NCBI GenBank assembly: GCA_963758295.1 | Contig: CAVWUU010000004.1 | Span: 1-64,000 of the forward strand | Length of the DNA: 64,000 nt | Source of the DNA: Candidatus Eremiobacteria bacterium | GTDB taxonomy: Bacteria; Vulcanimicrobiota; Vulcanimicrobiia; Vulcanimicrobiales; Vulcanimicrobiaceae | Direction of reading: 5' to 3' | In this document: one piece after another, positions 20,297-44,770 of the stretch | How positions within the stretch are numbered: position 1 is the stretch's first letter | Layout of the letters: each line of letters begins with the position of its first letter | The notes under the pieces: generated by a model | The model's input: only the letters and a program-made list of their open reading frames with translations | Databases searched by the model: none | What the model was told of the DNA's origin: nothing | Made by a program: the position numbers and the translations under genes

Positions 20297-20304
20297 CAGG
20301 TACG

Positions 20305-27016: not shown

Positions 27017-27379
27017 ATGGAAGTTCAACCGGCTCCCGCCCCAGGAAGCGATATCGTGGTGAGCGGTGGTACCGGACCGGAGATCGCTGCTGCGGCGCCC
27101 GCCGCGACAGCGCCTGTTTCTGCAGAAGCTCCTGCTTCGGGGCAGCAGCACGACGGTACGCTAACGCCCGCCATTGCCAAACTTTTCGCACCGACCGGCA
27201 TCGTCGACGCGGGAGACTTAAACGTTTCCTATCGGGTGCTAAGCGACCATGAAATCGTGACGGTGTTCACCGATCCTAAGACCGGCAAAGAAGTCACGCA
27301 GGTTCCCTCGGAAGCCATGATCGGACTCGCGGAGTTTTTCGATCAGCACCAGGGCGTCACGTTCGACAAGAGCGCGTAG
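27017..27379 (+). CDS. flaG: flagellar protein FlaG
   Basis: VFTDPKTGKEVTQVPSEAMI..GVTFDKSA; upstream of fliD. Confidence 0.85.
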   Translation: MEVQPAPAPGSDIVVSGGTGPEIAAAAPAATAPVSAEAPASGQQHDGTLTPAIAKLFAPTGIVDAGDLNVSYRVLSDHEIVTVFTDPKTGKEVTQVPSEAMIGLAEFFDQHQGVTFDKSA

Positions 27380-27391
27380 GGTAGGAGTAGA

Positions 27392-29407: not shown

Positions 29408-29416
29408 AGTAGATTC

Positions 29417-29860
29417 ATGAAAACTTCGGTCGAGCAGAAATATCTCGAGACGTCGATCGCGACCGCATCGAAAGAAGATCTAATCGTCAAGATCTTCGAC
29501 GTGCTTATCGTTGCCGCGCAGCAGGCTCACGAAAAGCTCGTGTACGATCGGGACGACATCACGGGGATTCATAAGGCATTGCTGCGGGCCCAACGGGCGT
29601 GCGCGCTGCTGATGGGTTCGCTCGACATGAAGATCGGCGGCGATCTGTCCGTGAACCTCTTCCGGGTTTATGAGTTTTGGCATCACGAACTCGTGATGGC
29701 AAACATGCAAAAGGACCCGACGCGAGTGGAGCGTTTGCTTCCGGATTTCAAAGACTATCGCGAGACCTGGAATAAGGCCGTCGCGCAGTTCAAAACAATG
29801 AAAAACGCGCAAGCCAAGGCGCAGAGCGCCGGAGGTTCGACCTTTGCCGCCGTTGGGTAA
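29417..29860 (+). CDS. fliS: flagellin export chaperone FliS
   Basis: YLETSIATASKEDLI, LMGSLDMKIGGDLSVNLFRVYEF, RETW. Confidence 0.92.
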   Translation: MKTSVEQKYLETSIATASKEDLIVKIFDVLIVAAQQAHEKLVYDRDDITGIHKALLRAQRACALLMGSLDMKIGGDLSVNLFRVYEFWHHELVMANMQKDPTRVERLLPDFKDYRETWNKAVAQFKTMKNAQAKAQSAGGSTFAAVG

Positions 29861-30261: not shown

Positions 30262-31875
30262 TTATTGGCCGGCCGCGTTTGCAAACGCGGTCACGAGGGC
30301 GCGCGCCGCCGCGTCGAGTTGCGCGTCGGTTTGAAAGAGCACGCCGGTCGTCCGATCGATACGAAGCCGGACGAAAAGCTTTTGGAGTGTCGTCATCGCC
30401 GTTTGCGCGTAGACGCGCAGCGCATTCTCGAGCGCCGCACCCGCCGCTGAATCCGACGCAATGCCGGCAATGCGTTGCGCTTGCAACGCGAGCGTGAGTT
30501 GACGCGCTTTCACGAAATCCCAGCGCGCGCGGCCTTCGTTGATCTTCGCCAGCACCGCGAGCGTCGGTTCCGAAAGCTCCGTCTGCAATAGGACGACATC
30601 CTTCGGCGGTGCAATCTCTTCGATCGCCGCCGGACGAATCGAACTGAGGTTCGCAAGCAATTCGCCGGCGTATTCCGCGATCGGCTCTTTTTTGCCGAGG
30701 CGCTCGTGCAGTTGCATCCGATGCAGAACTTGCGACTGTGCATCCAGGTGCCGTTTGAGTCCAAGGCCGTCGTTGCCGATTCCGTCTGTCGAACATGCGA
30801 GCGCGCTGCCGAAAATGCAGTGACTCAGAATGGTCGGTACCTTCGAGCCGTTGAAGGTGCGATCGAAGAACGCAATCGTCGTCCGGTCGAAGCGCCCGTA
30901 AAGCATGACCGCTTCGCGCACCGGGGGTGCAACAGGTTCCGGTTCGGGTGGCGGCTCGGAGGCACGTTCCGGCTTCGGTTCCGGCTCAGGTTCACGCTGC
31001 GGCTCCGGCAACGGCGGTTCCGGCTCCGGTGCCGGTGGCGCGGGCGGTTCAATTTCGGGCTCAGGGGAGGACTGCGGCTCGGAAACCGGCGCCGGCTGCG
31101 GCTCCGGTTCGCGTTGCGGCTCGGATTGCGGCTGCGGCTCGACGACGACCGGTTGCGGACGCGCGGGCGAGAGCGCCGCGTTGGCCGCTTCGTGCACGAT
31201 GATCTCTTGCTCGTCCAGTTCGTAGAATGGTAACTCGTCGGCCGGAATCTCGACCGGGATCAGCGGTTTGGGCGCATAGAGGCCCGGTCCGGCGCGTTCC
31301 AATTCGGCGGCGAACGCCGCGACGGACTTGCCTTTGCGATCGATTTTTAGATTGCGTGCTCCAACGACGGCGGCGCCGCCCGCGCGGACGGTTGGGATCA
31401 CAAGCAGGGCGTTATTGCCAAGGCGAACGCCAAGCTTCCATACGAACGTCTTGCGGTCGCCGGGAGCGATTTCACCGACGTCCAGCCCGTCGTGGAAGAA
31501 CTGGTCTGCCGTCTCGTCGGCCATCGGCCGGCCGTCCTGGACGAACGACCCGGGACGGAATCCCGCACCGGCCGGAATCGGCACGACGACCGCCACTTTT
31601 CGAGCCGAGGCGGCGCCTTCGTTGGCGACGCTCAGCGAAACGGTGACTACCGCGCCAGGAATAACGCCCGATGGCGGGGTGGCTGAAGCCTGCACGGCAA
31701 GCACGGCGCTGCGTCCCACCGGCGGCTGCACGTCATCGAGCGTCGCTGCGCCCGGCTCGGGAGCGAGCCGCGTTTGCCACGCCGTCGGCTGCGGCGTCGC
31801 AAGCCCAAGCGAAACGCGCTGCAGCTCGATGAGCCGCATGTCGGCGCTAACTTCGAAATCCGGTTCGGTGTTCAT
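30262..31875 (-). CDS. hypothetical protein with DUF11-like beta domain and Pro/Glu-rich linker
   Basis: PGAVVTVSLSVANEG..VVVPIPAGAGFRPGS..VGEIAPG; EPQPQSEPQREPEP repeats. Confidence 0.6.
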   Translation of the reverse strand: MNTEPDFEVSADMRLIELQRVSLGLATPQPTAWQTRLAPEPGAATLDDVQPPVGRSAVLAVQASATPPSGVIPGAVVTVSLSVANEGAASARKVAVVVPIPAGAGFRPGSFVQDGRPMADETADQFFHDGLDVGEIAPGDRKTFVWKLGVRLGNNALLVIPTVRAGGAAVVGARNLKIDRKGKSVAAFAAELERAGPGLYAPKPLIPVEIPADELPFYELDEQEIIVHEAANAALSPARPQPVVVEPQPQSEPQREPEPQPAPVSEPQSSPEPEIEPPAPPAPEPEPPLPEPQREPEPEPKPERASEPPPEPEPVAPPVREAVMLYGRFDRTTIAFFDRTFNGSKVPTILSHCIFGSALACSTDGIGNDGLGLKRHLDAQSQVLHRMQLHERLGKKEPIAEYAGELLANLSSIRPAAIEEIAPPKDVVLLQTELSEPTLAVLAKINEGRARWDFVKARQLTLALQAQRIAGIASDSAAGAALENALRVYAQTAMTTLQKLFVRLRIDRTTGVLFQTDAQLDAAARALVTAFANAAGQ

Positions 31876-32813
31876 TACGCCCGCCGGGCGAAGAGTCTCG
31901 CGAAGAACCCGAGTGGCCGTTCGGCATTGGAAGGCGCGCTCACAGCAGCGGATTCGGCTGCGACCGGCTCGGCGGCCGGCGGTTTCGATCTTTCCGTGAG
32001 GCCGCGTGCACGAATCGATGCACGCACGTGGTCTTCAAGCACGAGCGTACTCGCGCGGTCGGCCGCCTCTTGCATAGCGGCGTGCGCCAGCATCATCAGA
32101 CGACGTGGAACGCCGTCGCCCGCTTCAATGAGCAGCGCTCGCGCTTCAGGCGAAAACAACTGCGTGCCCGGCGCTAAGCCCGCACGCGTTAGGCGATAAT
32201 CGAGCACCGCAAGCGACGTTGCTTCATCCAAAGGTTCCAGGCGAATCCAGGCGTCGACGCGGTCGGCCAAATTGCCCTTCTCGTTGATGCCGGCTTCCAG
32301 TTCGTCTTGGCCGAATAGCAGAATATTCAATAGCTTGCGCTGCGGAACGTGATAGTTCAACAGGAGGCGCAACGCTTCGAGATTCTCTTCGCTAAGGTTT
32401 TGCGCTTCGTCTAAGATCAACACCAGCGTGCGCTTTTCGAGTACGGCGGTTTCGAAGAAGAAGTTCTTCAGCGCGTTCTTGAGCGCGGCGCTCGAGCGCG
32501 GCGGAAGCGCGAGCCCGAATACGCGGCCGATTGCGATGAGAAATTCGCTCTCGGTCGCAAAGGTCGGATCGAGAATCTTCCCGAGAACGACGCGATCGTC
32601 GGCAAGCAGTTCTTGTTCCAACGCGGTACTGAGACTTGTTTTGCCGGTGCCCGGCGCGCCGAGAACGACCGTGAGGCCACGAGACGCGTCGACCGAATCC
32701 GAAAGGCGTTCTTTCGCCTTTTTCAACGCGCCCAGTTCGCAATAAAAATAAGGATCGGCGGTATCTAGAAACGGGTCACGTTCCAGGCCGAAAAAACCGT
32801 AAAACCTTGACAT
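31875..32813 (-). CDS. ExeA/GspA-family AAA+ ATPase
   Basis: FFGLERDPF, GAPGTGKT, LILDEAQNL, LLFGQDEL, GVPRRL. Confidence 0.88.
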   Translation of the reverse strand: MSRFYGFFGLERDPFLDTADPYFYCELGALKKAKERLSDSVDASRGLTVVLGAPGTGKTSLSTALEQELLADDRVVLGKILDPTFATESEFLIAIGRVFGLALPPRSSAALKNALKNFFFETAVLEKRTLVLILDEAQNLSEENLEALRLLLNYHVPQRKLLNILLFGQDELEAGINEKGNLADRVDAWIRLEPLDEATSLAVLDYRLTRAGLAPGTQLFSPEARALLIEAGDGVPRRLMMLAHAAMQEAADRASTLVLEDHVRASIRARGLTERSKPPAAEPVAAESAAVSAPSNAERPLGFFARLFARRA

Positions 32814-32850: not shown

Positions 32851-33678
32851 TCATTGTGCGGCCCGCTGCGTAATCGCGTCCATCAGGCGTTCGACTTCCG
32901 CGAGCGGGAACGGAACGCCGATCGCGCGTCCTTCGACCGGTGCGTGAAAGTCAGTACCGCCGGTAATAAGCAGCCCTCGCTCGCGTGCTTTACGGGTGAG
33001 CGCTTCGACCATTTCCGGCGTAGCGGTTGGATGGACGACTTCGATCCCGTCGGCGCCCAGCTCCAAAAGCTCGTCTAAAGCCTCCGCGGTCCGCAAACGA
33101 GCCGGGTGTGCGACCACGGCGACCCCGCCCGACCGATGGATCAAGTCGATGATCTGTTCCGACGTGAGCCGGACGAGTGCCACGTAGGCGTCGCCCTCGT
33201 CGGCCAGGTAGCGGTCGAACGCCTCTTGGACTGTTGCCACGATGCCCTTTACCATCAGGGCCCGAGCCAGGTGCGGCCGTCCCAAGCTCACCGCGCCCGC
33301 CGCTTGGCGTTCGACGTCGGCGAGGGTAACTGCGGCGCCCCGAGCTTGCATAGCCTCAACCATCGCCGCCATGCGCCCTTTGCGTGCTGCCCGTTGTTCG
33401 TTTAGGGCGCTGAGCAAAGGCGACAAAGCGCTTGTTATGCCGTAGGCTAGCAGATGAACCGTGTGCCCGGCATGGTGTGAATCAACCTCTAGCGCCGGAA
33501 TGCACCGTACGGGAGGCGGCGCGTCTAGCGGGTAAGCATCGGTGCCGTCGTGATCGGAAATCGAGAAGAAATCGAGCTTTCGGTCGCTTATTTCCGATAG
33601 CAAACGTTCCTTGCTCCAAATGCCGTCGGAGAAGGTCGTGTGCATGTGTAAATCAACGAGAACCGTTCCGCTCGACAT
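32851..33678 (-). CDS. PHP-domain phosphoesterase (YciV/TrpH-like; candidate 3',5'-bisphosphate nucleotidase)
   Basis: DLHMHTTFSDG, SDHD, VHLLAYG, GRPHLARAL, AHP, DGIEVVH, TGGTDFH. Confidence 0.9.
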   Translation of the reverse strand: MSSGTVLVDLHMHTTFSDGIWSKERLLSEISDRKLDFFSISDHDGTDAYPLDAPPPVRCIPALEVDSHHAGHTVHLLAYGITSALSPLLSALNEQRAARKGRMAAMVEAMQARGAAVTLADVERQAAGAVSLGRPHLARALMVKGIVATVQEAFDRYLADEGDAYVALVRLTSEQIIDLIHRSGGVAVVAHPARLRTAEALDELLELGADGIEVVHPTATPEMVEALTRKARERGLLITGGTDFHAPVEGRAIGVPFPLAEVERLMDAITQRAAQ

Positions 33679-33698
33679 GCGCATAGAAGACCTGATTC

Positions 33699-33726
33699 CT
33701 AAGCTATCGGCGCGCCTTGCCGATTC
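33699..33726 (+). promoter_or_regulatory. sigma-28-type promoter of cysD-cysNC-tauE (CTAAG-N15-GCCGATTC)
   Basis: ATG 33736 lies 9 nt after the -10; no SD. Confidence 0.6.
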
Positions 33727-33731
33727 ATTAA
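33704..33731 (-). promoter_or_regulatory. sigma-28-type promoter of the PHP gene (TTAAT-N15-GCCGATAG), overlapping the cysD promoter
   Basis: Reverse strand reads TTAATGAATCGGCAAGGCGCGCCGATAG. Confidence 0.6.
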
Positions 33732-33735
33732 ACGC

Positions 33736-34545
33736 ATGTCATCCTCGCCGTTCTCCTATTTGGACGAGCTGGAAGCCCGCACGATCTTTATTCTGCGGGA
33801 AGCCTTTTCGTGCGTGACGCCGCTCGCAATGCTTTGGTCGATCGGCAAAGATTCCACGGCGTTGCTGTGGATGGTACGCAAGGCTTTTCTCGGCGAAGTG
33901 CCGTTCCCGGTCGTTCTTCTGGATACCGGAATGGAATTCGACGAAGTATACGCATTCCGCGATCGTCTCGTTCGTGAGTGGCAGCTGCCCGTCGCGAACG
34001 AGCTCTGTCCACCCGAACATACCGTCGATCAGACTTTGCCGCCCGCTTCGCGGCACGCCGCACGCAAAACGGCCGGCTTGCGATCGCTGCTCGCCCGGGA
34101 AAACTATCGCGGCATCATCCTCGGCATTCGTCGGGACGAACAAGCGATTCGCGCGAAAGAGCGGATCTTCAGTCCACGCAATGCCGACGGGTCATGGGAT
34201 CCGCGCTCGCAGCCGCCGGAGCTTTGGGACTACTATCCCTACGATATTCCCGACGGTGCGCACGTGCGCATTCATCCGCTGCTGCATTGGACGGAACTCG
34301 ATATTTGGCGCTACACGCTGCGCGAAAACATTCCATACGTGCCGTTGTATCTCGCTCAAAACGGGAAGCGTTACCGGTCGCTCGGTGAAAGCAACATCAC
34401 GTTCCCTATCGACAGCGCAGCCGACACCGTCGAGAAAATCATCGCCGAGTTAGAAGTAACACGGCAGCCCGAACGCGCCGGACGCGCGATGGACAGCGAA
34501 AGCGAGGACGCCTTCGAGCGTTTGCGTACGTCGGGGTACATGTGA
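33736..34545 (+). CDS. cysD: sulfate adenylyltransferase subunit 2 (CysD/NodP)
   Basis: LDELEARTIFILREA, WSIGKDS, GIRRDEQAIRAKERIFSPR, QPPELW, HVRIHPLLHWTELDIW, RYRSLG. Confidence 0.95.
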   Translation: MSSSPFSYLDELEARTIFILREAFSCVTPLAMLWSIGKDSTALLWMVRKAFLGEVPFPVVLLDTGMEFDEVYAFRDRLVREWQLPVANELCPPEHTVDQTLPPASRHAARKTAGLRSLLARENYRGIILGIRRDEQAIRAKERIFSPRNADGSWDPRSQPPELWDYYPYDIPDGAHVRIHPLLHWTELDIWRYTLRENIPYVPLYLAQNGKRYRSLGESNITFPIDSAADTVEKIIAELEVTRQPERAGRAMDSESEDAFERLRTSGYM

Positions 34546-36389
34546 AACAACTTCGCATCGTTATGGTCGGCGACGTCGATGCCGGCAAATCCACTATTCT
34601 CGGCCGCCTGCTGGTGGATCTCGAACAAGTCACGCCGGAGAAACTTGCGGAACTGGAATCTTCGAGTTCGAAGCGCGGCGTTCCGATCGAGTACTCGTTC
34701 TTGCTGGATGCTTTTCAGTTGGAACGCGACCAAGCCATCACGCTCGACGTTTCGCGCGTTTGGGTTCGTACTGCGGACGCTGATTTCGTCTTCGTCGATG
34801 CGCCGGGTCATCGGGAGCTCATTCGCAATCTGCTAAGTGGAGCGTCCGAAGTGGACGCGCCGGTTATGGTTGTTGCGGCGGACGAAGGCATCACCTTGCA
34901 AACGCGCCGCCAGGCGCTCTTTCTGCAGTGGCTCGGTTTCCGTGACATCCTCGTAACGATTAATAAGCTCGATCTTGCAGAGAATCCGAAAGCCCAGTTC
35001 GAACGCCGGGCAACGGAAATTCGTGAATTTCTCGCGCAGCTAGACATCGCTCCCTATGAAATCGTGCCGGTTGCCGCTCGCAACGGCGATAACATCGTTC
35101 ACCGTGGCAAGTTGACGGAGTGGTGGAAGGGCCCGACGCTAGTCGAAGCGCTTTCGCGCCTCGATCGCCGGGAGTTCAGCAGCGACGGACCATTGCGTTT
35201 CGTCGTGCAAGACGTGTACCGCCGCGAAAATACGCGCCTCGTGGTTGGCCGCATCGAAAGCGGATCGCTTAGCCGCGGCGAGCACATCACGTTTTGGCCG
35301 CTTCAAACCGGCGCCCGCGTGCAGCGCATCGTGCAGTGGCCCGAGGAAGCAGAAACCGCTTCGTGCGGATCCGCCGTCGCAATTGAATTGGATGCCCGTG
35401 TCTTCGTCGACCGCGGCGCGGTTGCAAGTCGCGCGAGCGATGCGCCGGAGCTCGGCCATGTCGTCCAAACGCGTATCGTCTGGCTAGGCGCCGACCCCAT
35501 TTGCGCGGGCGAAACGCTACGTCTACGTCTGGGCACGCGTGAAATTCCCGTTACGCTTCAACGCATTGACGAAGTCATCGATCCCGACACCGTCGAGCCG
35601 CGGCCCGGAGATACCCTTTCGAGCGGCGACGTCGCGGTCGTAACGCTAGTGTCCCGCGAATTGATCGCGGCCGACGTTAATCTCGAAGGTTCGAGCGTCG
35701 CGCGGTTCGTGCTCGCTCGTAACGGCGCAATTGTTGCCGGCGGCAAGATCGATGCGGTAGTCGGGCGCGCTCGCGGTGAAGGCGCCACGAACGTCGTAGC
35801 CATGACGTCTTCCGTCGATAGCGAGGAGCGCGGCCGTCGCAACGGCCACAGCGGCGGAGTGTTTTGGCTGACCGGTTTGCCGAGCGCCGGAAAATCGACG
35901 CTCGCCATGGCGACGCAGCGCATGCTGTTCGAACGCGGCCGACACGTGTACGTGCTCGACGGCGATACGCTGCGTACGACCCTGAACGTGGACCTTGGCT
36001 TCTCCGACGAAGATCGGGCGGAGAACGTTCGCCGCACGGCCGCCGTTGCAGGCGTCTTCGCGGATGCGGGCTTCATCGTGATTTGCGCGCTGATCTCCCC
36101 GTTCGCTGCGGATCGCGAACTTGCGCGCGCCGCCTATCCGAACGGCTTCTTCGAAATCTACGTGGAGTGCGATCTTGCGACGGCCGAGCGGCGTGACGTA
36201 AAGGGCCACTATCAGCGCGCTCGCCGCGGAGAACTCGCGCACTTCACCGGCATCTCGTCGCCGTACGAAGTGCCCGGAACGCCGGAACTGCGCGTTAACA
36301 CGGCTTCGTCGAGCATCGAGGAATCGGCTGCGCATCTCCTCGAGTTTATCGAGGACCGCGTGATGGAACGGCAAGCCGTTCTGCGGTGA
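34542..36389 (+). CDS. cysNC: bifunctional sulfate adenylyltransferase subunit 1 / APS kinase (CysNC/NodQ)
   Basis: GTPase GDVDAGKST, DAPGH, NKLD; kinase WLTGLPSAGKST, LDGD, ENVRR, FTGISSPYE. Confidence 0.94.
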   Translation: MKQLRIVMVGDVDAGKSTILGRLLVDLEQVTPEKLAELESSSSKRGVPIEYSFLLDAFQLERDQAITLDVSRVWVRTADADFVFVDAPGHRELIRNLLSGASEVDAPVMVVAADEGITLQTRRQALFLQWLGFRDILVTINKLDLAENPKAQFERRATEIREFLAQLDIAPYEIVPVAARNGDNIVHRGKLTEWWKGPTLVEALSRLDRREFSSDGPLRFVVQDVYRRENTRLVVGRIESGSLSRGEHITFWPLQTGARVQRIVQWPEEAETASCGSAVAIELDARVFVDRGAVASRASDAPELGHVVQTRIVWLGADPICAGETLRLRLGTREIPVTLQRIDEVIDPDTVEPRPGDTLSSGDVAVVTLVSRELIAADVNLEGSSVARFVLARNGAIVAGGKIDAVVGRARGEGATNVVAMTSSVDSEERGRRNGHSGGVFWLTGLPSAGKSTLAMATQRMLFERGRHVYVLDGDTLRTTLNVDLGFSDEDRAENVRRTAAVAGVFADAGFIVICALISPFAADRELARAAYPNGFFEIYVECDLATAERRDVKGHYQRARRGELAHFTGISSPYEVPGTPELRVNTASSSIEESAAHLLEFIEDRVMERQAVLR

Positions 36390-37145
36390 AAATCGCGCTT
36401 ATCGGGTTCGTCGTCGGAGTATGCATCTCGTACTCCGGCGTCGGCGCCGGTTCTTTAACCACGCCGCTCATCATGTTGCTGCTCGGCTACAATGCGAGCA
36501 CGGCAATCGGCTCCGACCTGCTCTTCAGCCTCGGCACGAAGATCGTCGCGTTTCTAACGCACGTTCGCGCGCGTACGATCGACTATAGCGCCCTGCTTTG
36601 GCTGTCGCTCGGCGGCGTTCCAGGCGCCGTTCTCGGCGTCGTAATTACGGGTTGGCTGCACGCGCATCTCTCACTGGATGCCGTGGATCACGCGTTGCGC
36701 GTCGCGCTCGGTATCGCGCTGGTCGTTTCGGCCGGCGCCGTCGCGTTCACGCATACGCTTTCGCCCGGCGAACCGGCCGATTCGCGCGCGCTTCCGCGCA
36801 TGCCGCTCGCGACAATCGGGTTTATTGTTGGGACGCTCGTAAGCATCACTTCGATCGGCAGCGGCTCCTTGACGCTCCCGCTGCTTCTCCTCATGCTTTC
36901 CACGGCGCAGCTGCGGCGGCTTGTCGGCACGGACGTGGCCTTTGCCGTGGTGTTGCTCGTGCCGGCGATTCTGGGGCATTGGAAACTCGGCGACGTCAAC
37001 GTTCACTTGGCGACGCTGCTTCTTGCCGGATCCATTCCGGGCGTCCTCATCGGAACGCCGCTTGCCCGGCGTTTGCCCGAACGTGCATTCCGCATAGGTT
37101 TGGCGATAATTCTTTGCACCGTCGGTGCAAAAAATGGCGTTTTAA
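36386..37145 (+). CDS. TauE/SafE (DUF81) sulfur-anion transporter
   Basis: Two GVGAG/SIGSG repeats, AIGSDL/LVGTDV; true stop probably TAA 37143-37145 after one extra A in the A-run near 37130. Confidence 0.85.
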
Positions 37146-38014
37146 CGTCCGCGTTTGCGCGCCGTAATAGCGAAGCTCGTTGCCCGCGTCAATTGCGGGG
37201 GCAGCGCGTTCGCGGCGGCGGCGGCTTGTATGGTTCTTGCGCTAGCACGAAGTGCTTCGGCGCTCGACGCGTCGAACCAGCGGTACGAAGCAAGATCGAC
37301 GTCCAGATCGAGTCTCGCAATCGTTATATCGCAATTCAGGGCTTGAATGACGGAAGCCACTTGCGGCAATGTAACATAGTTAAATTCGCCGATGCCGCCG
37401 CTAGGCCGGCCGAAAAGTTCAAGCCATAGTTCGGCAACGGGCCGCGACGCAAAAGGGGGCCACGGCATCTCGTAATGCGCTTCAAAAGGACCGCGATAAT
37501 CGGGTGCCCATAGGACGATAGCGCCGCCCGGTTTGGTTACGCGTACCAATTCGTAGAGGACCGACGCCACATCCGACACGTGTTCGATAAACTGGTGGCC
37601 CATCACGATATCAAACGTATTGCTTTCGAATTCCAGAGCCGACGCGTCGCCCTGGCGAATGTGCTGCTGCCATTCGCCGGGATATCCGTACACGGCCGTT
37701 TTCGCATGCGCTACAGCAAGCCTCCGCTCGCTATTGTCGATGCCGTAGGCATCATACCCGCGCTCGAGCATGGAGTAGAGAAACGTGGCAGTGCCGCAAC
37801 CGACTTCGAGAAATCGCAGCGGTAACGAAGGAAGAGCCATTCCGATCGCCGCTTCCAATTCGTTAAAAAGCCTATCGTGCGCGCCTCGGTCCGCAAGGAT
37901 ATGGCGAGCCCTGACAAGCGCAGCTTCGGCAAAGCCGAATTTCGCGTTGTCTTCGTCGATGAGCGCCTCAACGGCGCGCTCCAAGGTCGCTTTAGCTTCT
38001 TTCTCCTCCGGCAT
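37142..38014 (-). CDS. class I SAM-dependent methyltransferase
   Basis: FLEVGCGTA, GID, GDASALEFESNTFDIV, EHV, RVTKPGG. Confidence 0.9.
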   Translation of the reverse strand: MPEEKEAKATLERAVEALIDEDNAKFGFAEAALVRARHILADRGAHDRLFNELEAAIGMALPSLPLRFLEVGCGTATFLYSMLERGYDAYGIDNSERRLAVAHAKTAVYGYPGEWQQHIRQGDASALEFESNTFDIVMGHQFIEHVSDVASVLYELVRVTKPGGAIVLWAPDYRGPFEAHYEMPWPPFASRPVAELWLELFGRPSGGIGEFNYVTLPQVASVIQALNCDITIARLDLDVDLASYRWFDASSAEALRASARTIQAAAAANALPPQLTRATSFAITARKRGR

Positions 38015-38055
38015 GCGGGGGAGTTCCGGTGCTCGCCGCCGGGCCCTTCCACGGC

Positions 38056-38083
38056 TGAAGAGCACCCGGATTTTAACCGATAA
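38056..38083 (+). promoter_or_regulatory. sigma-28-type promoter of the sulfotransferase operon (TGAAG-N15-ACCGATAA)
   Basis: GTG 38091 lies 7 nt after the -10; no SD. Confidence 0.6.
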
Positions 38084-38090
38084 CTCGTTA

Positions 38091-39056
38091 GTGAATAGGC
38101 CGCAAATTATCGTTGTTTTGGGGATGCATCGCTCCGGCACATCGGTTACGACGAATCTTCTCAATGCGTTCGGTGTTCCGTTGAGCGACGACCTCATGGA
38201 GGCCACTCAAGACAACGCGAAGGGATACTTCGAATCTAGAGAAATTTCGCGAGTACAAGACGCGATCTTGGATTCAATGGGCATGTTGTGGCGGACCAGC
38301 AGCCTAGTCGTCCCGTTTCCGCGAAATTGGTGGCATGCACCCGTGGTTCAACAGCACAAGCGCGAACTGGCCCAAATCGTTCGCCGCGAAATGGATCGGC
38401 ACGGCGGCCTTTGGGGCTTCAAAGATCCTCGAACGGCGCGGCTGCTGCCTGTTTGGATCGAGATCTTTCAGGAGTTCGGAATCGATGCAAAGTACGTCCT
38501 CGTCACACGCCATCCGGTCGATGTGGCGAAGTCGCTATTCGCCCGCGAGCAAATCGATCCGATGCACGCGGAGATCATGTGGTTGGAGCACAATGCCGAC
38601 GCACTGCTCCACTTAAACGGCAACATCCACGCTTTAGTCGACTATCGCGGCTGGATCGAAACGCCGGTCGAACAGGCGCAATACATGATTCGCGAATTGG
38701 GCATTGACGCCAGCTATTCGCAAGATGAGTTGCAGTCGATCGTAAAAAGCGTCGTTTCGTCCGACCTGCGCCATCACTTGACCGCGCAGAATACGTACCA
38801 GCTGCCGTTTACCCACCCCATGTACGAAGCGCTGTTGCGGCGTGACAAAACCAATGCCAAGAGCCTAGCCGAAGTTTTCAACATTTCGCGCGGTTTTACG
38901 CAGGTTATCCTGGCGCAGGCCAAGCGCTCCGCCGAAGCGCAAACGCAACAACTTCACGCTATGCTTCAAGCTTCTCACGGAAAAGTTGCAGAGCTGGAAG
39001 CAAAGCTCGCCGCTGCTTCCTTTAGATCCGGGACCGCCGTTGCCAATGACGCCTGA
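38091..39056 (+). CDS. PAPS-dependent sulfotransferase family protein
   Basis: 5'-PSB loop VLGMHRSGTS, NAKGYFE, WGFKDPRT, 3'-PB RHPVDVAKSL; C-terminal coiled coil. Confidence 0.85.
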   Translation: MNRPQIIVVLGMHRSGTSVTTNLLNAFGVPLSDDLMEATQDNAKGYFESREISRVQDAILDSMGMLWRTSSLVVPFPRNWWHAPVVQQHKRELAQIVRREMDRHGGLWGFKDPRTARLLPVWIEIFQEFGIDAKYVLVTRHPVDVAKSLFAREQIDPMHAEIMWLEHNADALLHLNGNIHALVDYRGWIETPVEQAQYMIRELGIDASYSQDELQSIVKSVVSSDLRHHLTAQNTYQLPFTHPMYEALLRRDKTNAKSLAEVFNISRGFTQVILAQAKRSAEAQTQQLHAMLQASHGKVAELEAKLAAASFRSGTAVANDA

Positions 39057-40647
39057 AGATTTGCGCCGTGCCCTGCAAGATTGCGCAGATGTCGATGAAT
39101 CGATGGTTGCGGCGCAGTTAAGCGACGGCGCTGCGGATGTGCGCACGCTGGCGCAAGCTGCAATCGCGCGTACGAAGATCCGTCAGGCTTTGGAGAGCTG
39201 CGCACGTTTGGCCGAACTGCAAGGGTACTCGGATCAAGCAACGCTCGGCGCCGTCGAGCGCCTCGCGCAAATATCGGACGTTGACGTGCCGTATCTCGCC
39301 ACGCTAAAGGGCCTGGGGCTCCAAGCTGCTAAGGCCGGCCAGGTCGACCGCGCAATGGATTTGTTGCAAGGAACGGTTTCACGGGCAATTGCCGCCGGGC
39401 AGCGTCGCGATTCGAAATCGCGCCAGGCGATGCGTTTCACCTACGACCCCGAGATCGGTGGGGCGATTCAGTTGCTTGCGCGGCAGTTCAGCGGACCAAA
39501 CACCGAGCCAAAAGCACGAAGCCCGTTGCGGCTCGTCGTCGTTTCGTCGGGATTGCAAGATGAAGATGCGCCGAGCATCGTGACGCTAAAAAGAAGTGTG
39601 GCATTTCGTCAAGCCGGTTTCGAAATCGAAATCGTCTCTACCGAGCTCGGGAACAGCAACGGAACCGCCATGCTTAGCAAGGCTTTGGCGGTGGGAATTC
39701 CGTTCACACCCATCCCGCCCGGAACATGGCGCCAGCGCGTCGCATGGACGACGAATTTCTTTGCCGCCAACGCCGCGGATGCGGTGATGTACGAAGCTTC
39801 GGGGATGGACCTCTTCGCGCAACTCTTGGCCGCCATACGCATGGCGCCCGTGCAGGTGTGGGGCAACAAGGGCTTTGAACCGCAGGCGGGAGCCTACGAG
39901 ATCGTCGCTCAGAATCTAAGCCCGAACCAAGAGCGCGAAACGCGTTGGCCCGGCGTTTCGAAATTCTATGGCGCCGCCATTGCGTTGGCGGACGAAATCG
40001 ACGCGGCGGTTCCGTTCGAGCGGGCCGAACTCAATCTGCCCTCCGACGCGATCGTGCTCGGAACGTTCGGCCGGACGGAGAAATGTATTTCCGACACGTA
40101 CATCCAGGCTCTTTCGGAAATCTTACGTAGCGATCCGCGAACGCAGCTGCTCCTGGCGGGGCCGGACAATCTCAAACAGATCGAGCTTATCCTCGAGCGC
40201 TTTAACGCAGCAGGTGTAAGAGACCGCGTCCATTATCTCGGTCGCCGCCAAAGCGATGCAGCGCGCTTGGTAAAAACGCTGGATATCTACTGTGACACCC
40301 ACCCGTGGCCCGGCGGACAGAGCCTCCAGGACGCGATGCAGGCCGGTGTGCCGATCGTAGCAATGCGAAAACCTTCGGGATCCACTTTGGATGCGAACGG
40401 CGTATCGGTTAGCGAAGTGGCCGATGTGCTGCTCGGCGGCCTTGTCGAACTCGCGGATTCCGGCGACGTTGCATCTTACGTTCGCATAGCGCTTGCATTA
40501 GCGGCGGACGGCGAATTGCGCCGGCACGTTGGAGCACGGGTTCGGGAAAAGGCCGTGACGCAATGCAGTCTCCGCGTTTCGACCGATAAGCTTGCGGCCG
40601 ACATGATGGAGCTGATCGAGCGACGTCGCCCCGCGTTGAATGTCTAG
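39046..40647 (+). CDS. glycosyltransferase, O-GlcNAc transferase/HMW1C (GT41)-like catalytic half
   Basis: LAAIRMAPVQV, VLGTFGRTEKCI, LDIYCDTHPWPGGQSLQDAMQAGVPIV, YVRIALALAAD. Confidence 0.72.
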   Translation: MTPEDLRRALQDCADVDESMVAAQLSDGAADVRTLAQAAIARTKIRQALESCARLAELQGYSDQATLGAVERLAQISDVDVPYLATLKGLGLQAAKAGQVDRAMDLLQGTVSRAIAAGQRRDSKSRQAMRFTYDPEIGGAIQLLARQFSGPNTEPKARSPLRLVVVSSGLQDEDAPSIVTLKRSVAFRQAGFEIEIVSTELGNSNGTAMLSKALAVGIPFTPIPPGTWRQRVAWTTNFFAANAADAVMYEASGMDLFAQLLAAIRMAPVQVWGNKGFEPQAGAYEIVAQNLSPNQERETRWPGVSKFYGAAIALADEIDAAVPFERAELNLPSDAIVLGTFGRTEKCISDTYIQALSEILRSDPRTQLLLAGPDNLKQIELILERFNAAGVRDRVHYLGRRQSDAARLVKTLDIYCDTHPWPGGQSLQDAMQAGVPIVAMRKPSGSTLDANGVSVSEVADVLLGGLVELADSGDVASYVRIALALAADGELRRHVGARVREKAVTQCSLRVSTDKLAADMMELIERRRPALNV

Positions 40648-41158
40648 CTGTTCGATTCGGCCCGTTGCGGAGGCCGACTTCGCTCGATGGTTGACGTGGA
40701 TTAACCGCCCGGACGTCATGGATGGCCTGGACCGCGCCATCCTCGCGACGCCGGACGGACACCGGCAGTATATCGAACGTCACTTCGGTCCTGGCGGTTT
40801 TCCATGCTTTGCAATCGAGGCCGGCGATGGTACCTACGTCGGAAATATTTGGTTATGGGATGTCCATCCGCGTCACCGGCGCGCCGAAGTGCGGCTGTTT
40901 ATCGGCGACGCCCGATATCGCGGGCGCGGAATAGGCCGCGACGCGATCGTCCTACTATGCGAGTACGCGTTCGCCGAAGGCAGTCTTCACAAGCTGTACG
41001 CCTACGTTCACGAAGGCAATGAGTCGTCGAGGCGCGCCTTTGAAGCCGCCGGCTTTTCTGTTGAGGCCACGTTGGTCGAAGAAGCCGTGCGCGACGGCCG
41101 CTTCACGAACGTTTTTCGAATGGCTCGGGTAAGCTCGGACCGCTCCGCCGATAGCTAG
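40640..41158 (+). CDS. GNAT N-acetyltransferase (RimJ/RimL/PseH-like)
   Basis: YRGRGIG, LHKLYAYVHEGNESSRRAFEAAGF. Confidence 0.88.
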   Translation: MSSCSIRPVAEADFARWLTWINRPDVMDGLDRAILATPDGHRQYIERHFGPGGFPCFAIEAGDGTYVGNIWLWDVHPRHRRAEVRLFIGDARYRGRGIGRDAIVLLCEYAFAEGSLHKLYAYVHEGNESSRRAFEAAGFSVEATLVEEAVRDGRFTNVFRMARVSSDRSADS

Positions 41159-42300
41159 AGGGGCACCGCGGGCCGGGCAACTTCGGCGAGCGCTTCACAG
41201 ACGGTTTCGATCATCGCCTCGCCCATCTGGGGAAAGATCGGCAATCGAGCCAGTCTCCCGCTGAGCGAGTCCGTAAAGGTCATCGCTCCGGAAAGACGCC
41301 CGTATCGGCGCCCGGCCGGCGAAGAATGCAGCGGGATGTAGTGAAACAGCGCGTTGATACCACGCGTGCGAAGCTCTTGTAGTGCGCGATCCCTCGCTTC
41401 GTTATCCGCAAAGAGCACGTAGTAAATATGGCCGTTATGTTCGACGCCCCGCGGAATGATGGGGCGCCGGATTAGACCCGCAGCTTCGAGCGTCTCGAGC
41501 CGCTTGTGATACGCGTTCCACGTCGAGAGACGATCGGATATCAATGCGCCGGCGTGTTCGAGCTGTGCCCAAAGAAATGCGGCGACGATGTCGCTTGGCA
41601 AATACGACGAGCCCGCATCCACCCAGGTGTATTTGTCTACTTGGCCGCGGATGAATTTCGAGCGGTCCGTCCCCTTTTCACGGATGATCTCCGCGCGCTC
41701 GATGTACGTGGGATCGTTGACGAGCAGCGCACCGCCCTCGCCGGATATTAGATTTTTCGTCTCGTGAAAGCTCAGCGCTCCGAGCGCGCCGATTGATCCC
41801 AATTCTCGACCGCCGTATCGGGAACCGACTGCTTGTGCGGCGTCCTCAACGAGCGCAATACCGTAACGGGCCGCGATCTCTTGCAGCACCGACATCTCGC
41901 AGGGGACGCCCGCGTAGTGAACGGCAACGATAGCCTTGGTTCGCGGCGTAATGGCGGCCTCGACGAGCCGCTCGTCGAGATTGAGCGTGTCTTCCCGGAT
42001 GTCGACGAATACCGGCGTAGCACCCCGAAGAACGAACGCGTTCGCCGTGGAGACGAAGGTATACGATGGCATGATAACTTCGTCGCCCGGCCCAATATCC
42101 AGCAACAGCGCCATCATCTCGAGCGCCGCGGTGCACGAATGTGTGAGAAGCGCCGCCGAGGCACCGGTACGCTCCACCAGCCACTTATGAATGCGTTTGG
42201 TAAACGGGCCGTCACCGGAAGTATGCGCTTGTGCCACGGCTTCGGCGATGTATTCGAGTTCCTTGCCCGTAGCATACGGACGGTTAAAGGGTACTTGCAT
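41155..42300 (-). CDS. wecE: dTDP-4-amino-4,6-dideoxygalactose transaminase (DegT family)
   Basis: VPFNRP, LTHSCTAALEM, MPSYTFVSTANAF, EDAAQ, SFHETKN, GEGG, EKGTDRS..VDKYTW, FHYIPLH. Confidence 0.93.
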   Translation of the reverse strand: MQVPFNRPYATGKELEYIAEAVAQAHTSGDGPFTKRIHKWLVERTGASAALLTHSCTAALEMMALLLDIGPGDEVIMPSYTFVSTANAFVLRGATPVFVDIREDTLNLDERLVEAAITPRTKAIVAVHYAGVPCEMSVLQEIAARYGIALVEDAAQAVGSRYGGRELGSIGALGALSFHETKNLISGEGGALLVNDPTYIERAEIIREKGTDRSKFIRGQVDKYTWVDAGSSYLPSDIVAAFLWAQLEHAGALISDRLSTWNAYHKRLETLEAAGLIRRPIIPRGVEHNGHIYYVLFADNEARDRALQELRTRGINALFHYIPLHSSPAGRRYGRLSGAMTFTDSLSGRLARLPIFPQMGEAMIETVCEALAEVARPAVPL

Positions 42301-43018
42301 GCGCGCTTTCGATCCGAAGGAGATGGTGAGGGGCATCCGGGCCGGTCATCATAAGCAAATCGACGATGGAGACGAACGGAGCGAACTCCCCGTGAAGTTG
42401 CGGATAGGCTGCATACGTATAATCGATGTACTCCAACGCTATGCCGGCGTCCGTAAATTGCTGCGGCTCGATGTAGCTGCGGGCAGAAGGCCCGCTGATG
42501 TAGCGCGTTGCGCCGGCTTGTTGTAACGTTGCGATGAGGCGCTGCGTTTTTGCGCCGGAAATTCGCAGTTCAGATGAACGAACGAAACGAGGCTTGAGGC
42601 CGAGGGCATCGGCAATTCGAATCGTGAGACCAATGGTGAAGTCCGCTAATCGATGTGCCTCGCCGGAAACGGCATCCGTTAAGAGAGAAAATGCCCAATC
42701 GAAATGTGGCGCGCGCCGGTAGGCGTGACGAATTGCTTCAAGATGCTTTCGTTGCCAATTGCTGCGATTGTCTATTTCGACGGCATTTATCGCCACATGC
42801 TCCTGAACGTTTCCTTTCGCATGCGTGGGAATGGTAATCCACTGAAGCCCGGTCGCCGTCTTGATCTGGTTTCGATTGCGCCAACCGTGTTTATCGTATT
42901 GCACGTCGTCGTAAAAGACAAACGTATCCGCGCGCCTGATGAGGTCGAAATATCCGCGCCAAGGAAGATACGACGGCTGCACGACCACGACGGTCTGCTC
43001 AGCCGCTGACGAAGCCAC
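42284..43018 (-). CDS. WbqC-like family protein
   Basis: QPSYLPWRGYF, FYDDVQY..WRNRN, YISGPSARSY, SIVDLLM. Confidence 0.9.
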   Translation of the reverse strand: MASSAAEQTVVVVQPSYLPWRGYFDLIRRADTFVFYDDVQYDKHGWRNRNQIKTATGLQWITIPTHAKGNVQEHVAINAVEIDNRSNWQRKHLEAIRHAYRRAPHFDWAFSLLTDAVSGEAHRLADFTIGLTIRIADALGLKPRFVRSSELRISGAKTQRLIATLQQAGATRYISGPSARSYIEPQQFTDAGIALEYIDYTYAAYPQLHGEFAPFVSIVDLLMMTGPDAPHHLLRIESAHASTL

Positions 43019-43020
43019 GA

Positions 43021-43752
43021 TTACGCCGGCGTGAGCTGATGCTGAGACGCCACCAGCTGTGTGGCGCGGTAGAGCGACTCGAATTGACCCGCGTCGGTCC
43101 ACCAACCGTCAAGGACGTCGTAGTACAAATCGCCTTCTTTGATATAGGCGTTGTTGACGTCGGTGATTTCGAGTTCGCCGCGGTCCGACGGCTTGAGCCG
43201 CTTGCAGAAGTCGAAAACGCGACGGTCGTACATGTAGATGCCGGTAACGGCGTACGAGCTCTTCGGCTGTTTCGGCTTTTCCTCGATACGCACGATGCGG
43301 TCACCGTCGAGTTCGGGACAGCCAAAGCGCTCCGGATCGTTTACTTCCTTAAGTAGAATGCGCGCACCGGAATCTTGTTCTTCAAACTTGCGAACGTACG
43401 GCGTGATGTCATCTTGGATGATGTTGTCGCCCAAAATGACCGCGATGCGCTGGCCTTCCGCGAAGTGTTCGCACAACTTGAGCGCGTCGGCGATGCCGCC
43501 TTCACCCTCTTGGTACGTGTAGTAAATGTCTTTCAGGCCGAATTCTTTGCCGTTGCCCAGAAGCCGCAGAAAGTCGCCGGCAGAGTTGCCGCCGGTAACG
43601 ATCATGATGTCCTTGATGCCGGCACGGACGAGCGTCTCGATCGGATAGTAGATCATCGGCTTGTCGTAAATCGGCAGCAGATGTTTGTTTGTAACCTTCG
43701 TCAGCGGCCGCAAACGCGAACCGAGACCACCGGCAAGAATAACGCCCTTCAT
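43021..43752 (-). CDS. rmlA: glucose-1-phosphate thymidylyltransferase
   Basis: GVILAGGLGSRLRPLT..KHLLPIYDKPMIYY, EEKP, RGELEITD, WTDAG. Confidence 0.93.
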   Translation of the reverse strand: MKGVILAGGLGSRLRPLTKVTNKHLLPIYDKPMIYYPIETLVRAGIKDIMIVTGGNSAGDFLRLLGNGKEFGLKDIYYTYQEGEGGIADALKLCEHFAEGQRIAVILGDNIIQDDITPYVRKFEEQDSGARILLKEVNDPERFGCPELDGDRIVRIEEKPKQPKSSYAVTGIYMYDRRVFDFCKRLKPSDRGELEITDVNNAYIKEGDLYYDVLDGWWTDAGQFESLYRATQLVASQHQLTPA

Positions 43753-43760
43753 ATGTTCCT

Positions 43761-44770
43761 TTAGCGATGCGCGTACTGGCGCTTGTAGTAATCCAGAAAT
43801 TCGCCCGACTTCAGCGGTCGCCACCATGCTTCGTTGGTGCGATACCAATCGATGGTGGAGCGTAAGCCTTCATCGAAGTTCATTCGCGGCGGCCCATCCG
43901 AGTGCGCGCGCCTTCGTGGTATCAACCGCATAGCGGCGATCGTGGCCTGCGCGGTCCGTCAACGTGGCGAACGTGCGTGTCCATCGAGCGCCCGCAGCCC
44001 TCGACGAGCAATTGCGTGATCTCCATGTTGGTGCGCGGATTGCCGCCCCCGATGTTGTAAATGTTTCCAAGTTCGCCGTGCTCGAGCACGTGCATGATGC
44101 CGCGCGCGTGATCTTCCACATAGAGCCAATCGCGAATCTGCAGCCCGTCGCCGTACACCGGAACGGTTTGATCGTCGAGCAGGTTCGTGACGAACAGCGG
44201 AATGAGCTTTTCGGGATACTGATACGGACCGTACGTGTTGCTGCCGCGCGTAATGAGTACCGGCGTCTTGAAGGTCGTCCAATAGGCGAGCACTTGCAGA
44301 TCGCCGCCGGCTTTGCTGGCCGAATAGGGGCTGCGCGGATGAAGGCCGTCGGTCTCTACCGACTCGCCTTCCGAAACGTCGCCGTACACTTCGTCGGTCG
44401 AAACTTGCACGTAGCGCGGAATGCCGTGCGCGCGAACCGCTTCGAGCAGCACGTGCGTTCCGAGGATATCGGTGCGCAAGAAATGCTTCGGGATCGAGGA
44501 TCGACCGGTCGACGTGCGTTTCCGCCGCGAAATTCACGATCGCGTCGACGCCGCTCGCCGATCGCGTGCGCGACGGCCGCCGCGATCGCAAATGTCGCCG
44601 CGAACGAACCGGTAGCGCGGGTCGTGCTCGAGGTCGGCACATTCGCCGGGTTGCCGGCATACGTCATCGCGTCGAGATTCGACGATCTCGAGATCTGGGC
44701 GCTCGCGGAGCGCGAGGCGGATGAAGTTCGAGCCGATGAACCCGAGGCCGCCGGTTACTAGCCAGCGCAT
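43761..44770 (-). CDS. rmlB: dTDP-glucose 4,6-dehydratase (multiple indels)
   Basis: VTGGLGFIGSNF, NFAAETHVDRSI, STDEVYG, PYSASK, YQYPEKLIP, RDWLYVEDH, GHDRRYA across frames. Confidence 0.92.

Follow-up and report, generated by a model that had tools for sequence, protein, structure and literature searches.

Background

Dedicated synthases of 3'-phosphoadenosine 5'-phosphosulfate (PAPS) can feed a sulfotransferase, as NodP/NodQ do for NodH in the sulfation of rhizobial Nod factors and RaxP/RaxQ do for RaxST in Xanthomonas. Flagellin glycosylation islands are known with soluble enzymes such as Listeria GmaR, a GT2-TPR transferase, and the glycans put on flagellin influence motility, the attachment of phages and recognition by the immune system. 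Here we analyze a window of 64,000 nucleotides from a Candidatus Eremiobacteria bacterium, namely the first 64 kb of contig C4 (CAVWUU010000004.1) of the GenBank assembly GCA_963758295.1 (3.03 Mb, 6 contigs, 82% complete), in which genes for PAPS synthesis, anion transport and sulfotransfer, and a candidate gene for the clearing of 3'-phosphoadenosine 5'-phosphate (PAP), lie close to the flagellar genes fliD and fliS. On balance, we lean towards reading them as a self-contained sulfation module in a flagellin glycosylation island, acting on the flagellin glycan.

Sulfur-bearing groups on motility filaments have been described in two other settings. Halobacterium salinarum is reported to use two sulfotransferases for the sulfated N-glycans of its archaellins and S-layer (PMC11980604). 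The type B flagellin glycan of Clostridioides difficile is capped by a taurine-containing sulfonated peptidyl-amide, which the authors call unique in bacterial flagellar glycosylation (PMC5207245). For Alteromonas, one paper mentions sulfotransferases in O-chain islands only (PMC3542563). Full-text literature searches gave us neither a paper on sulfate in the flagellin glycan of a bacterium nor one on a PAPS pathway controlled by FliA, and they yielded no characterised flagellin glycosylation island with PAPS synthesis or a sulfotransferase.

The genes of the sulfation module

The module includes two tight operons, cysD/cysNC/TauE with 4-nt overlaps and sulfotransferase/glycosyltransferase/GNAT with overlapping stop and start codons. 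An earlier note, made by reading this stretch without database searches, had named the PHP, cysD, cysNC, TauE/SafE, sulfotransferase and transferase genes next to fliD/fliS, and all of them are found where it placed them.

The small subunit of sulfate adenylyltransferase is encoded by cysD (33736..34545, plus strand). It contains SIGKDS, which we take to be the canonical PP-loop motif, together with a PAPS_reduct domain (113.7 bits) and a match to NF003587 of 302.8 bits against a cut-off of 195. The next gene is a cysN-cysC fusion (34542..36389, plus strand), i.e. the GTPase subunit of ATP sulfurylase joined to adenosine 5'-phosphosulfate (APS) kinase, with GTP_EFTU (108.6 bits) and APS_kinase (195.2 bits) domains. 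The CysN motifs G1 GDVDAGKS, G3 DAPG and G4 NKLD and the CysC P-loop GLPSAGKS are all present, and the whole-protein model NF004035 gives 511.9 bits, under its cut-off of 715. With these motifs intact, CysD and CysN-CysC are predicted at the family level to make PAPS. The third gene of the operon encodes a TauE/SafE (TSUP) anion permease with six hydrophobic segments (36386..37429, plus strand; 143.1 bits against a cut-off of 32.6), a candidate for sulfate uptake. Its domain match ends at 37132 though the open reading frame (ORF) runs to 37429; the last ~290 nt of the frame overlap a minus-strand methyltransferase gene and are probably non-coding. The TauE family has five loci in the genome, one of them inside the cluster, and a whole-genome search found no SulP and no CysT above its cut-off. 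Sulfate import by the cluster copy is plausible.

The sulfotransferase gene (38091..39056, plus strand) encodes a protein with a GMHRSGTS loop and a long C-terminal helix, matching Sulfotransfer_3 with 30.1 bits against a cut-off of 27. When the protein is aligned with 22 homologs, GMHRSGTS and the residues R140, P142 and V145 are invariant, S148 is conserved in at least 90%, and FKDPRT is invariant or nearly so; we take GMHRSGTS to be the 5'-phosphosulfate-binding loop and R140/P142/V145/S148 to be the 3'-phosphate-binding motif for PAPS. The AlphaFold model of the protein has a mean pLDDT of 92.6 and carries a C-terminal helix of 68 residues. Its best Foldseek matches in PDB are sulfotransferases, i.e. 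4gox, TPST2 (3ap3) and CurM (4gbm), followed by Stf1, Stf9 and Stf0, and they include olefin-synthase and CurM sulfotransferase domains as well as TPST1/2. These sulfotransferase matches have E-values from 2e-7 to 1e-3 and TM scores of 0.33-0.49, the query TM score being 0.41-0.44 for the best PDB matches and 0.34-0.38 for Stf0, Stf1 and Stf9. A profile search of the PDB sequences with the sulfotransferase gave no match, and the family comprises 938 database proteins at E <=1e-5, nearly all of them unnamed. By its predicted structure, the protein is a real PAPS-type sulfotransferase from a structurally unsolved family.

The structural ranking also bears on the idea that the enzyme directly modifies flagellin, or some other flagellar protein, at amino-acid side chains, like the tyrosylprotein sulfotransferases and RaxST. 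Human and tick tyrosylprotein sulfotransferases rank 2 and 4-10 among the structural matches with E ~1e-5, and the 68-residue helix could dock on a partner protein. These TM scores are modest (0.39-0.49), however, and a sulfotransferase domain of the polyketide type ranks first. Translational coupling links the gene to those of a glycosyltransferase and a GNAT, amino-sugar genes lie beside it, and distant members of the family are fused to glycosyltransferases. We consider direct sulfation of side chains quite improbable.

The partner glycosyltransferase gene (39046..40647, plus strand) has a start that overlaps the sulfotransferase stop by 11 nt, and its product is a soluble GT-B enzyme with the Pfam domains Glyco_trans_1_4 and Glycos_transf_1. 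It had been called GT41-like, for which there is weak support: the nearest solved proteins in sequence are XcOGT, a GT41 enzyme (E 2e-4), and SPINDLY (E 0.1), and the similarity covers residues 340-519 only. Pfam found no TPR array in the protein. The start of a GNAT N-acetyltransferase gene (40640..41158, plus strand) overlaps the glycosyltransferase stop, and this overlap makes it part of the sulfotransferase operon. TauE and the sulfotransferase are separated by a gene for a class I SAM-dependent methyltransferase (37142..38014, minus strand), oriented towards TauE and away from the sulfotransferase, which the earlier note did not list. It is kept in two related loci, with 80% identity in the genome G003 and 42% in the locus L029 (here G-numbers denote other genomes, G000 being the source genome, and L-numbers denote loci).

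Sulfation or assimilation

We weighed whether the cys genes do ordinary sulfate assimilation, with the sulfotransferase being incidental. The earlier note had seen neither a PAPS reductase nor a sulfite reductase in the window, which is correct, and the same holds genome-wide: six-frame searches of the window and of the 82%-complete assembly found no cysH or APS reductase, no NIR_SIR sulfite reductase and no sat. The one PAPS_reduct-family match in the genome is cysD itself, and the sole real APS kinase is cysNC. We compared 40 relative genomes, all counts including the unpublished G004 and G036, though none of our claims depends on these two alone. NIR_SIR occurs in 8 of the 40 but in none of the five other genomes of the genus, and the searches of G002, G003, G005 and G041-G043 gave no cysH-type PAPS_reduct match. 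The only PAPS_reduct match in G001 and in G004 is cysD-like and lies beside cysN and cysC. The three genomes G041-G043, which carry the sulfotransferase and cysDNC beside fliS, likewise have no NIR_SIR match (0/3), and their PAPS_reduct matches are of the cysD type only. Since no reductive branch was found, PAPS is most likely used here only for sulfation; the APS kinase domain, the PAP-phosphatase-type paralog and the sulfotransferase that accompany the cys genes also argue against assimilation.

Two observations count the other way. The genome G014 (95% complete, single contig) has cysH and a sulfite reductase together at ~250 kb, and its island cysDNC is the only full-length sulfate-activating match, and thus the sole ATP sulfurylase found, with no sat detected; this cysDNC probably serves assimilation as well as sulfation. 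The second is the state of the assembly, which is merely 82% complete and rich in frameshifts. Single-base indels are frequent, e.g. in fliC (18913-20197), in rmlB (43870-44660), at 44915-46321 and at 50199-51884; the fliC coding sequence is spread across several frames and has one G too many immediately after the start codon, a single ORF covers both rpsB and tsf, fragments of dxr and rseP are likewise joined, and rmlB is fragmented. This pattern suggests long-read homopolymer errors and not pseudogenes. Because of the frameshifts, we base every claim of absence on six-frame searches that continue across stop codons.

Overall, it is well supported that the PAPS module serves sulfation rather than assimilation in this genome, and we hold the assimilatory explanation to be very improbable. 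The view that the PAPS genes are not assimilatory thus stands for this genome, for the genus and for G041-G043, none of which has a detectable separate set of cysH, sulfite reductase and sat, and it does not extend to G014, where the module is not private to sulfation.

The candidate PAP phosphatase

The clearing of PAP is usually assigned to CysQ. The gene divergent from cysD encodes a PHP-family phosphoesterase (32851..33684, minus strand), an extra paralog that we propose as the PAP phosphatase of the module. Its metal-binding motifs HxH and DFH are present, and its relatives in PDB are 7ug9, 9etk, 3e0f and 2yb1 (E 1e-26 to 2e-23). The pAp phosphatase model NF041577 gives 136.7 bits against a cut-off of 400, and the RNase RNM model scores almost equally (133.6 bits, also under its cut-off); by these scores the protein is a member of the family that falls short of the Cv1693 equivalog level. 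The other PHP copy in the genome (C4:954023-954796) is 33% identical and of the housekeeping type, which is also found in 39 of the 40 relatives at 25-39% identity.

The cluster copy has few close orthologs, namely those of G003 (84%), L029 (61%), G040 (56%), G035 (52%) and G004 (49%). They adjoin cysDNC in G003 and L029. G040 and G035 come from a different family and gave no match in a flagellin search; in both, the ortholog lies directly beside cysC in a non-flagellar setting, with sat and Sulfotransfer_1/3 genes within ~4 kb. This repeated company of sat-cysC and sulfotransferase genes supports a role as PAP phosphatase. Five of the six flanked loci with close PHP orthologs (at least 52% identity) adjoin cysDNC or sat-cysC, some of these loci being kin and not independent. 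A metagenome scan found four close PHP loci (62-63% identical) among the best 80, one of which had useful flanks. A point against the assignment is L131, where the PHP ortholog (63%) lies in a methyltransferase/GT2 island, near an AAA_22/537-aa gene pair that is also found in our window, with no cys gene within 6 kb; the link of PHP to PAPS genes is therefore not universal. PAP recycling by this protein, as suggested in the earlier note, is thus backed by the tie of the extra paralog to PAPS genes in other lineages and weakened by the missed equivalog cut-off and by L131.

The compact sat, cysC and PHP set in the non-flagellated G040 (L123) and G035 (L124) represents another kind of sulfation module, the phylum's second. 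For these comparisons, Pfam was run on 25 of 48 prepared ORFs and on four ORFs of the source genome.

The flagellar island and the likely acceptor

PAPS is cytoplasmic, and so is the O-glycosylation of flagellin. Among the 28 proteins checked from flgI to rpsB, hydrophobic segments occur only in TauE, in FlgI (signal-like) and in one stretch of CysNC, and family scans of the island found no flippase, polymerase, ABC exporter or polyprenyl-phosphate transferase. The island encodes five glycosyltransferase-type proteins, all soluble, and the GNAT along with a full dTDP-4-amino-4,6-dideoxyhexose route.

The flagellar genes of the window run flgB-C, fliE, flgF-G-(A)-H-I, flgK, flgL, fliW, csrA and then the flagellin gene fliC (18913..20197, plus strand). 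Directly 3' of fliC lies a gene for a soluble GT2 + TPR glycosyltransferase with a protein-glycosyltransferase architecture (20287..22359, plus strand), whose best NCBIfam match is the SunS family, below that family's cut-off. It is followed on the plus strand by two more soluble GT2 glycosyltransferases (22369..24992, i.e. 22369-23616 and the ORF 23520-24992) and by a 688-aa protein (24890..26956) that gave no match in Pfam and NCBIfam scans and is a candidate GT4-like enzyme by language-model features, as a lead only. Then come flaG, fliD and fliS (27017..29860, plus strand) and, after fliS, a gene for a 132-aa protein without an assigned family. On the far side of the module, genes for a WecE-type aminotransferase (579 bits against a cut-off of 375), a WbqC-like protein, RmlA and the indel-fragmented RmlB (41155..44660, minus strand) would supply dTDP-4-amino-4,6-dideoxyhexose, and rpsB and tsf follow at the end of the island.

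The order fliC, GT2-TPR, GT2, GT2, flaG, fliD, fliS, then sulfation and sugar genes, and then rpsB is conserved in G003, G014, G016 and L029-L032. The whole cluster is repeated in G003. In G014 the sulfotransferase and cysD-cysNC-TauE lie between fliS and rpsB together with a TylF methyltransferase and a GT2, and this island has no PHP, methyltransferase or GT-B gene of the window type. A tblastn search of one-genome-per-species contigs gave 79 sulfotransferase-related loci; the four closest (44-59% identity) all have fliD and fliS, and three of them also have cysD-cysNC. Among these, L029 further carries PHP, methyltransferase, GT-B, wecE, wbqC and rmlA, and in L030 and L031, 3.6 kb past fliS, the genes cysD, cysNC, TauE and sulfotransferase follow one another without a break and in the same direction. 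Each of the closest sulfotransferase orthologs (44-81% identity) is found no more than ~10 kb from fliD/fliS or else beside rpsB, on the opposite side of the island.

Several results tell against a flagellar acceptor. The sulfotransferase is rare, occurring in 2 of the 40 relatives (G003 with 81% identity and G014 with 51%). Flagellin is found in 18 of the 40, and both sulfotransferase-bearing relatives are among these (2/18, against 0/22 of the others), numbers too few to weigh. The G016 island has cysD-cysNC-TauE with no detectable member of this sulfotransferase family. Flagellar genes are present at just 6 of the 79 loci, and the sampled distant members lie in O-antigen/ABC-transporter or other polysaccharide loci, e.g. 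in Vibrio, Methylotetracoccus, Azospirillum and Paenibacillus.

In G016, hhalign of four ORFs against the family profile gave less than 1% probability, and six ORFs without a family had no Pfam match at E up to 1. A family profile search of five cysDNC-bearing relatives found the sulfotransferase in none (0/5). The surroundings of cysD-cysNC are of the housekeeping kind in G018 and G023 (CysD ~68-70%, CysNC 42-45% identity) and also in G007, where the genes are more distant (CysD 34%, CysNC 37-38%), and in G008 the pair adjoins sugar-modification genes; among the ORFs prepared from relatives, 56 of 102 were run through Pfam.

The distant homologs have at most 41% identity and lie mostly in polysaccharide loci, as judged from Pfam runs on 91 of the 126 ORFs from 9 of 12 distant loci (L085, L077, L035 and parts of L052 and L106 being left out). 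In Azospirillum the homolog adjoins Wzm/Wzt and cysD-cysNC, and in Paenibacillus the homologs are found in ~1000-aa proteins beside ABC-sulfotransferase fusions. Two distant homologs are flagellar, one in L038, with fliW, csrA and a sulfotransferase-TPR-methyltransferase fusion, and one in L070, near a flagellin gene. In L052 (Vibrio sp.) and L073 (Methylotetracoccus oryzae) the homolog is the N-terminus of a WbsX/GT1/GT2 megaprotein of 1470-1650 aa; these fusions stand beside Wzm/Wzt, and a sulfatase gene lies near the Methylotetracoccus one. The gene content suggests that the Vibrio locus sulfates an ABC-transporter-dependent O-antigen. From its contexts, the family looks like one of glycan sulfotransferases generally, with a flagellar-island branch in Eremiobacterota.

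These loci lead to the explanation that the module sulfates another surface glycan or glycoprotein (lipopolysaccharide, exopolysaccharide, S-layer or another exported protein) and that the stretch from fliS to rpsB is a hot spot for variable glycan genes. The low share of flagellar loci, the O-antigen fusions beside Wzm/Wzt and the PHP/sat/cysC/sulfotransferase clusters of G040 and G035 would fit this, as would the differing content of the island between relatives and the presence in it of a conserved 537-aa protein and an ExeA-like ATPase. However, no lipid-carrier glycosyltransferase, flippase, polymerase or exporter was found in the island and its enzymes are soluble, GT2-TPR and further glycosyltransferases stand directly 3' of fliC, a sigma-28-type motif precedes the sulfotransferase in five of eight orthologous loci, and the closest orthologs keep to fliD/fliS or rpsB. 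We regard another surface acceptor as unlikely. The flagellin glycan is the best reading of the acceptor, a circumstantial one drawn from gene context. The proposal of a flagellum-coupled cluster accordingly holds in that the genes lie in a flagellin-glycosylation-type island kept from fliS to rpsB in relatives; in G016 the cys genes of the island are not coupled to a detectable sulfotransferase of this family.

The 537-aa protein (weak DUF11 match, zero hydrophobic segments) and the AAA_22/ExeA-like ATPase are encoded as a pair (30262..32813, minus strand) kept beside fliS in relatives. The pair follows fliS directly in G003, G014, G016, L029-L032 and L131; among the same-genus genomes G001, G002 and G005 the AAA_22 anchor was found in G001 only. 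A conserved motif ACAATGA(G/C)TTT ... TCTAA lies upstream of the ATPase gene. A second and apparently intact flagellin gene is found far from the flagellar cluster (G000 C4:1153222-1153602), and relatives carry two to four flagellin-family genes. In G014 (L021, 13233-14297) two tandem fliW genes precede csrA.

Sigma-28-type motifs

The genome encodes FliA (250.7 bits against a cut-off of 189.6). We took TAAA-N15-GCCGATAA as the sigma-28 consensus and scored TAAA-N14-16-GCCGATAA over 12 positions, requiring an intact CCGAT core and at least 3/4 in the -35 box. The exact pattern TAAA-N14-16-GCCGATAA has no match in the window, which is why partial matches were scored, and GCCGATA alone is not enriched (12 observed versus 8.9 expected). 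Six sites in the window are intergenic, correctly oriented and near a gene start, and the rest are intragenic. Three of the six precede flagellar genes, i.e. flgB (7864-7891, plus strand, 11/12), fliC (18796..18823, plus strand, TAAAG...tCCGATAc, 10/12) and flaG (26954..26981, plus strand, 10/12). The other three precede cysD (33700-33726, plus strand, 9/12), PHP (33704-33730, minus strand, 10/12) and the sulfotransferase (38056..38083, plus strand, TGAA-N16-AACCGATAA, 10/12, ending 7 nt before the start codon). The motifs that the earlier note had read before cysD, PHP and the sulfotransferase are thus real, rare, rightly placed and like the flagellar sites of the same genome.

Among 2796 ORF-called genes, 40 have a site of at least 9/12 near their start and 17 have one of at least 10/12. 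The 17, of which 11 were covered by annotation, include four flagellar genes (fliC, flaG, fliF and fliK) and PHP, together with genes for an HD-GYP-type protein, GH43, GH125, Uma2, a response regulator and one protein of no family. The sulfotransferase is missing from this count because the ORF caller chose a longer upstream ORF. Given the sites at flgB, fliF and fliK, the motif is not confined to late flagellar genes here. The fliC site also occurs in G003 and G014 (3/3 loci with the window), and the flaG site recurs in 2/3 loci. Of the eight orthologous loci, five have a sulfotransferase site of at least 9/12 and seven have the CCGAT core; this site recurs with a TAAC -35 box in G014 and L029 and is not part of an inverted repeat.

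Some results weaken the case for sigma-28 control. Genome-wide there are 586 sites at 9/12 or better (169 at 10/12 or better), no excess over the ~650 per genome simulated with a second-order Markov model, so that the promoter argument rests on placement and conservation. The site is missing upstream of cysD in four of seven orthologous loci, i.e. it recurs in 3/7, and upstream of PHP in three of five, i.e. in 2/5. The overlapping cysD and PHP sites form an inverted repeat and hence are not independent: the PHP-cysD spacer (33685-33735) has 51 bp, and its two opposite-strand motifs read CTATCGG...GCCGATTC.

The boxes in this spacer and before the sulfotransferase might accordingly be an operator or other signal, with the module independent of FliA. 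The two spacer sites are reverse complements, and the conservation of the arms in L029, where both boxes are retained, the sequence between them has diverged and the divergent gene is a different one (362-aa ORF), would fit an operator equally. Only 7-10 nt separate the end of the -10 box from the start codon at cysD and at the sulfotransferase, too little for a leader or ribosome-binding site; sites of such quality are not commoner than in simulated sequence; and the non-flagellar GH43, GH125 and Uma2 genes have equally good ones. On the other hand, this motif also precedes flgB, fliC, flaG, fliF and fliK in this genome, the sulfotransferase site lies outside any inverted repeat and recurs in G014 and L029, and FliA is encoded. 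An operator seems to us somewhat unlikely; it concerns the promoter step only and would be compatible with sulfation of the flagellin glycan. Sigma-28 control of the module is plausible and, in our judgement from these sequence matches, somewhat more likely than not. Among sequencing runs, none of RNA was listed for 32800-39100, and just two, both of soil DNA, contain a small share of its words. The earlier wording, that all of the module stands behind sigma-28 promoters, is true for the genus and one further genome, and beyond these it is limited by the cysD and PHP counts above.

If the boxes are functional, their nearness to the start codons would make the mRNAs leaderless. An xCCGATAx box lies ~7-9 nt before the inferred sulfotransferase start, several times GTG, in six orthologous loci (the window, L016, L029, L030, L031 and L033). 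Genome-wide, such spacing shows no clear peak 5-12 nt before starts (10 of 150 sites), and the leaderless idea, which may hold, comes from the sulfotransferase and cysD loci only. The sole perfect 12/12 site in the genome (C2:280441-280978) is followed, at a distance of 7 nt, by a 167-aa ORF that matches nothing in Pfam.

Proposed pathway and its meaning

We propose the following pathway. The TSUP permease would import sulfate, and CysD with CysN-CysC would convert it to APS and then to PAPS. The soluble sulfotransferase would transfer the sulfo group onto a sugar of the cytoplasmic flagellin glycan, presumably built on flagellin by the neighbouring soluble glycosyltransferases, or onto a nucleotide-sugar precursor. 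The extra PHP paralog, judging from its family and gene context, would clear the inhibitory by-product PAP, and sigma-28-type promoters at PHP, cysD and the sulfotransferase would co-activate the module with the flagellar genes.

Taken together, we tentatively suggest that some bacteria sulfate-esterify their flagellar filament by a flagellum-timed cassette for import, PAPS synthesis, transfer and PHP clearing, that in lineages without assimilation this cassette is the sole use of activated sulfate, and that leaderless sigma-28 mRNAs are possible; this joint proposal is held less firmly than the placement of a sulfation module in the island. If it is true, the sulfate ester would add a strong negative charge to the filament surface. 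The locus also puts forward a PHP-family paralog as a candidate for clearing PAP in sulfation modules, and it would represent a lineage retaining PAPS synthesis after the loss of sulfate reduction. Vulcanimicrobium alpinus, the one cultured Eremiobacterota, is reported to have no flagellin gene (PMC9758169) and is thus unusable as a test bed. The organism studied here is an uncultured soil bacterium, and yet the prediction is testable with recombinant proteins.

Comparison with known systems

The locus combines two known kinds, i.e. flagellin glycosylation islands and NodPQH-type sulfation modules. As in NodPQ-NodH and RaxPQ-RaxST, a PAPS synthase of the CysD/CysN-CysC type stands beside a sulfotransferase and is expected to supply it and not cysteine synthesis. 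In contrast to them, the module of the window lies in a flagellar glycosylation island and includes a TSUP permease as well as a candidate PAP phosphatase of the PHP type; sigma-28-type motifs stand before it, and its acceptor is one that we infer from context. Its sulfotransferase is of another, unsolved family than NodH and RaxST, with TM scores below 0.5 to every solved sulfotransferase. The PHP protein is of the same family as the Cv1693-type 3',5'-nucleoside bisphosphate phosphatase (2yb1, E 2e-23) and YciV/RNase AM (7ug9, E 1e-26); unlike Cv1693, it is a second, lineage-restricted paralog far below the cut-off, tied to PAPS by gene context only.

With the GmaR-type islands the locus shares the GT2-TPR gene beside the flagellin gene, and, from fliC to fliD/fliS, further genes for soluble glycosyltransferases and for nucleotide sugars, and it differs from the characterised ones that we found in print by its PAPS synthesis and sulfotransferase. 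The likeness to H. salinarum would be a sulfate on the glycan of a motility filament protein; the archaeal glycan is N-linked, made on a lipid carrier, assembled at the membrane and carried by an unrelated filament, whereas the route predicted here is a cytoplasmic O-type one with soluble enzymes. The C. difficile glycan likewise places a sulfur-bearing acidic group on an amino-dideoxyhexose of a bacterial flagellin O-glycan (PMC5207245). Its sulfonate arrives as taurine, with no part for PAPS or a sulfotransferase, whereas the genes of our window predict a sulfate ester or a sulfamate.

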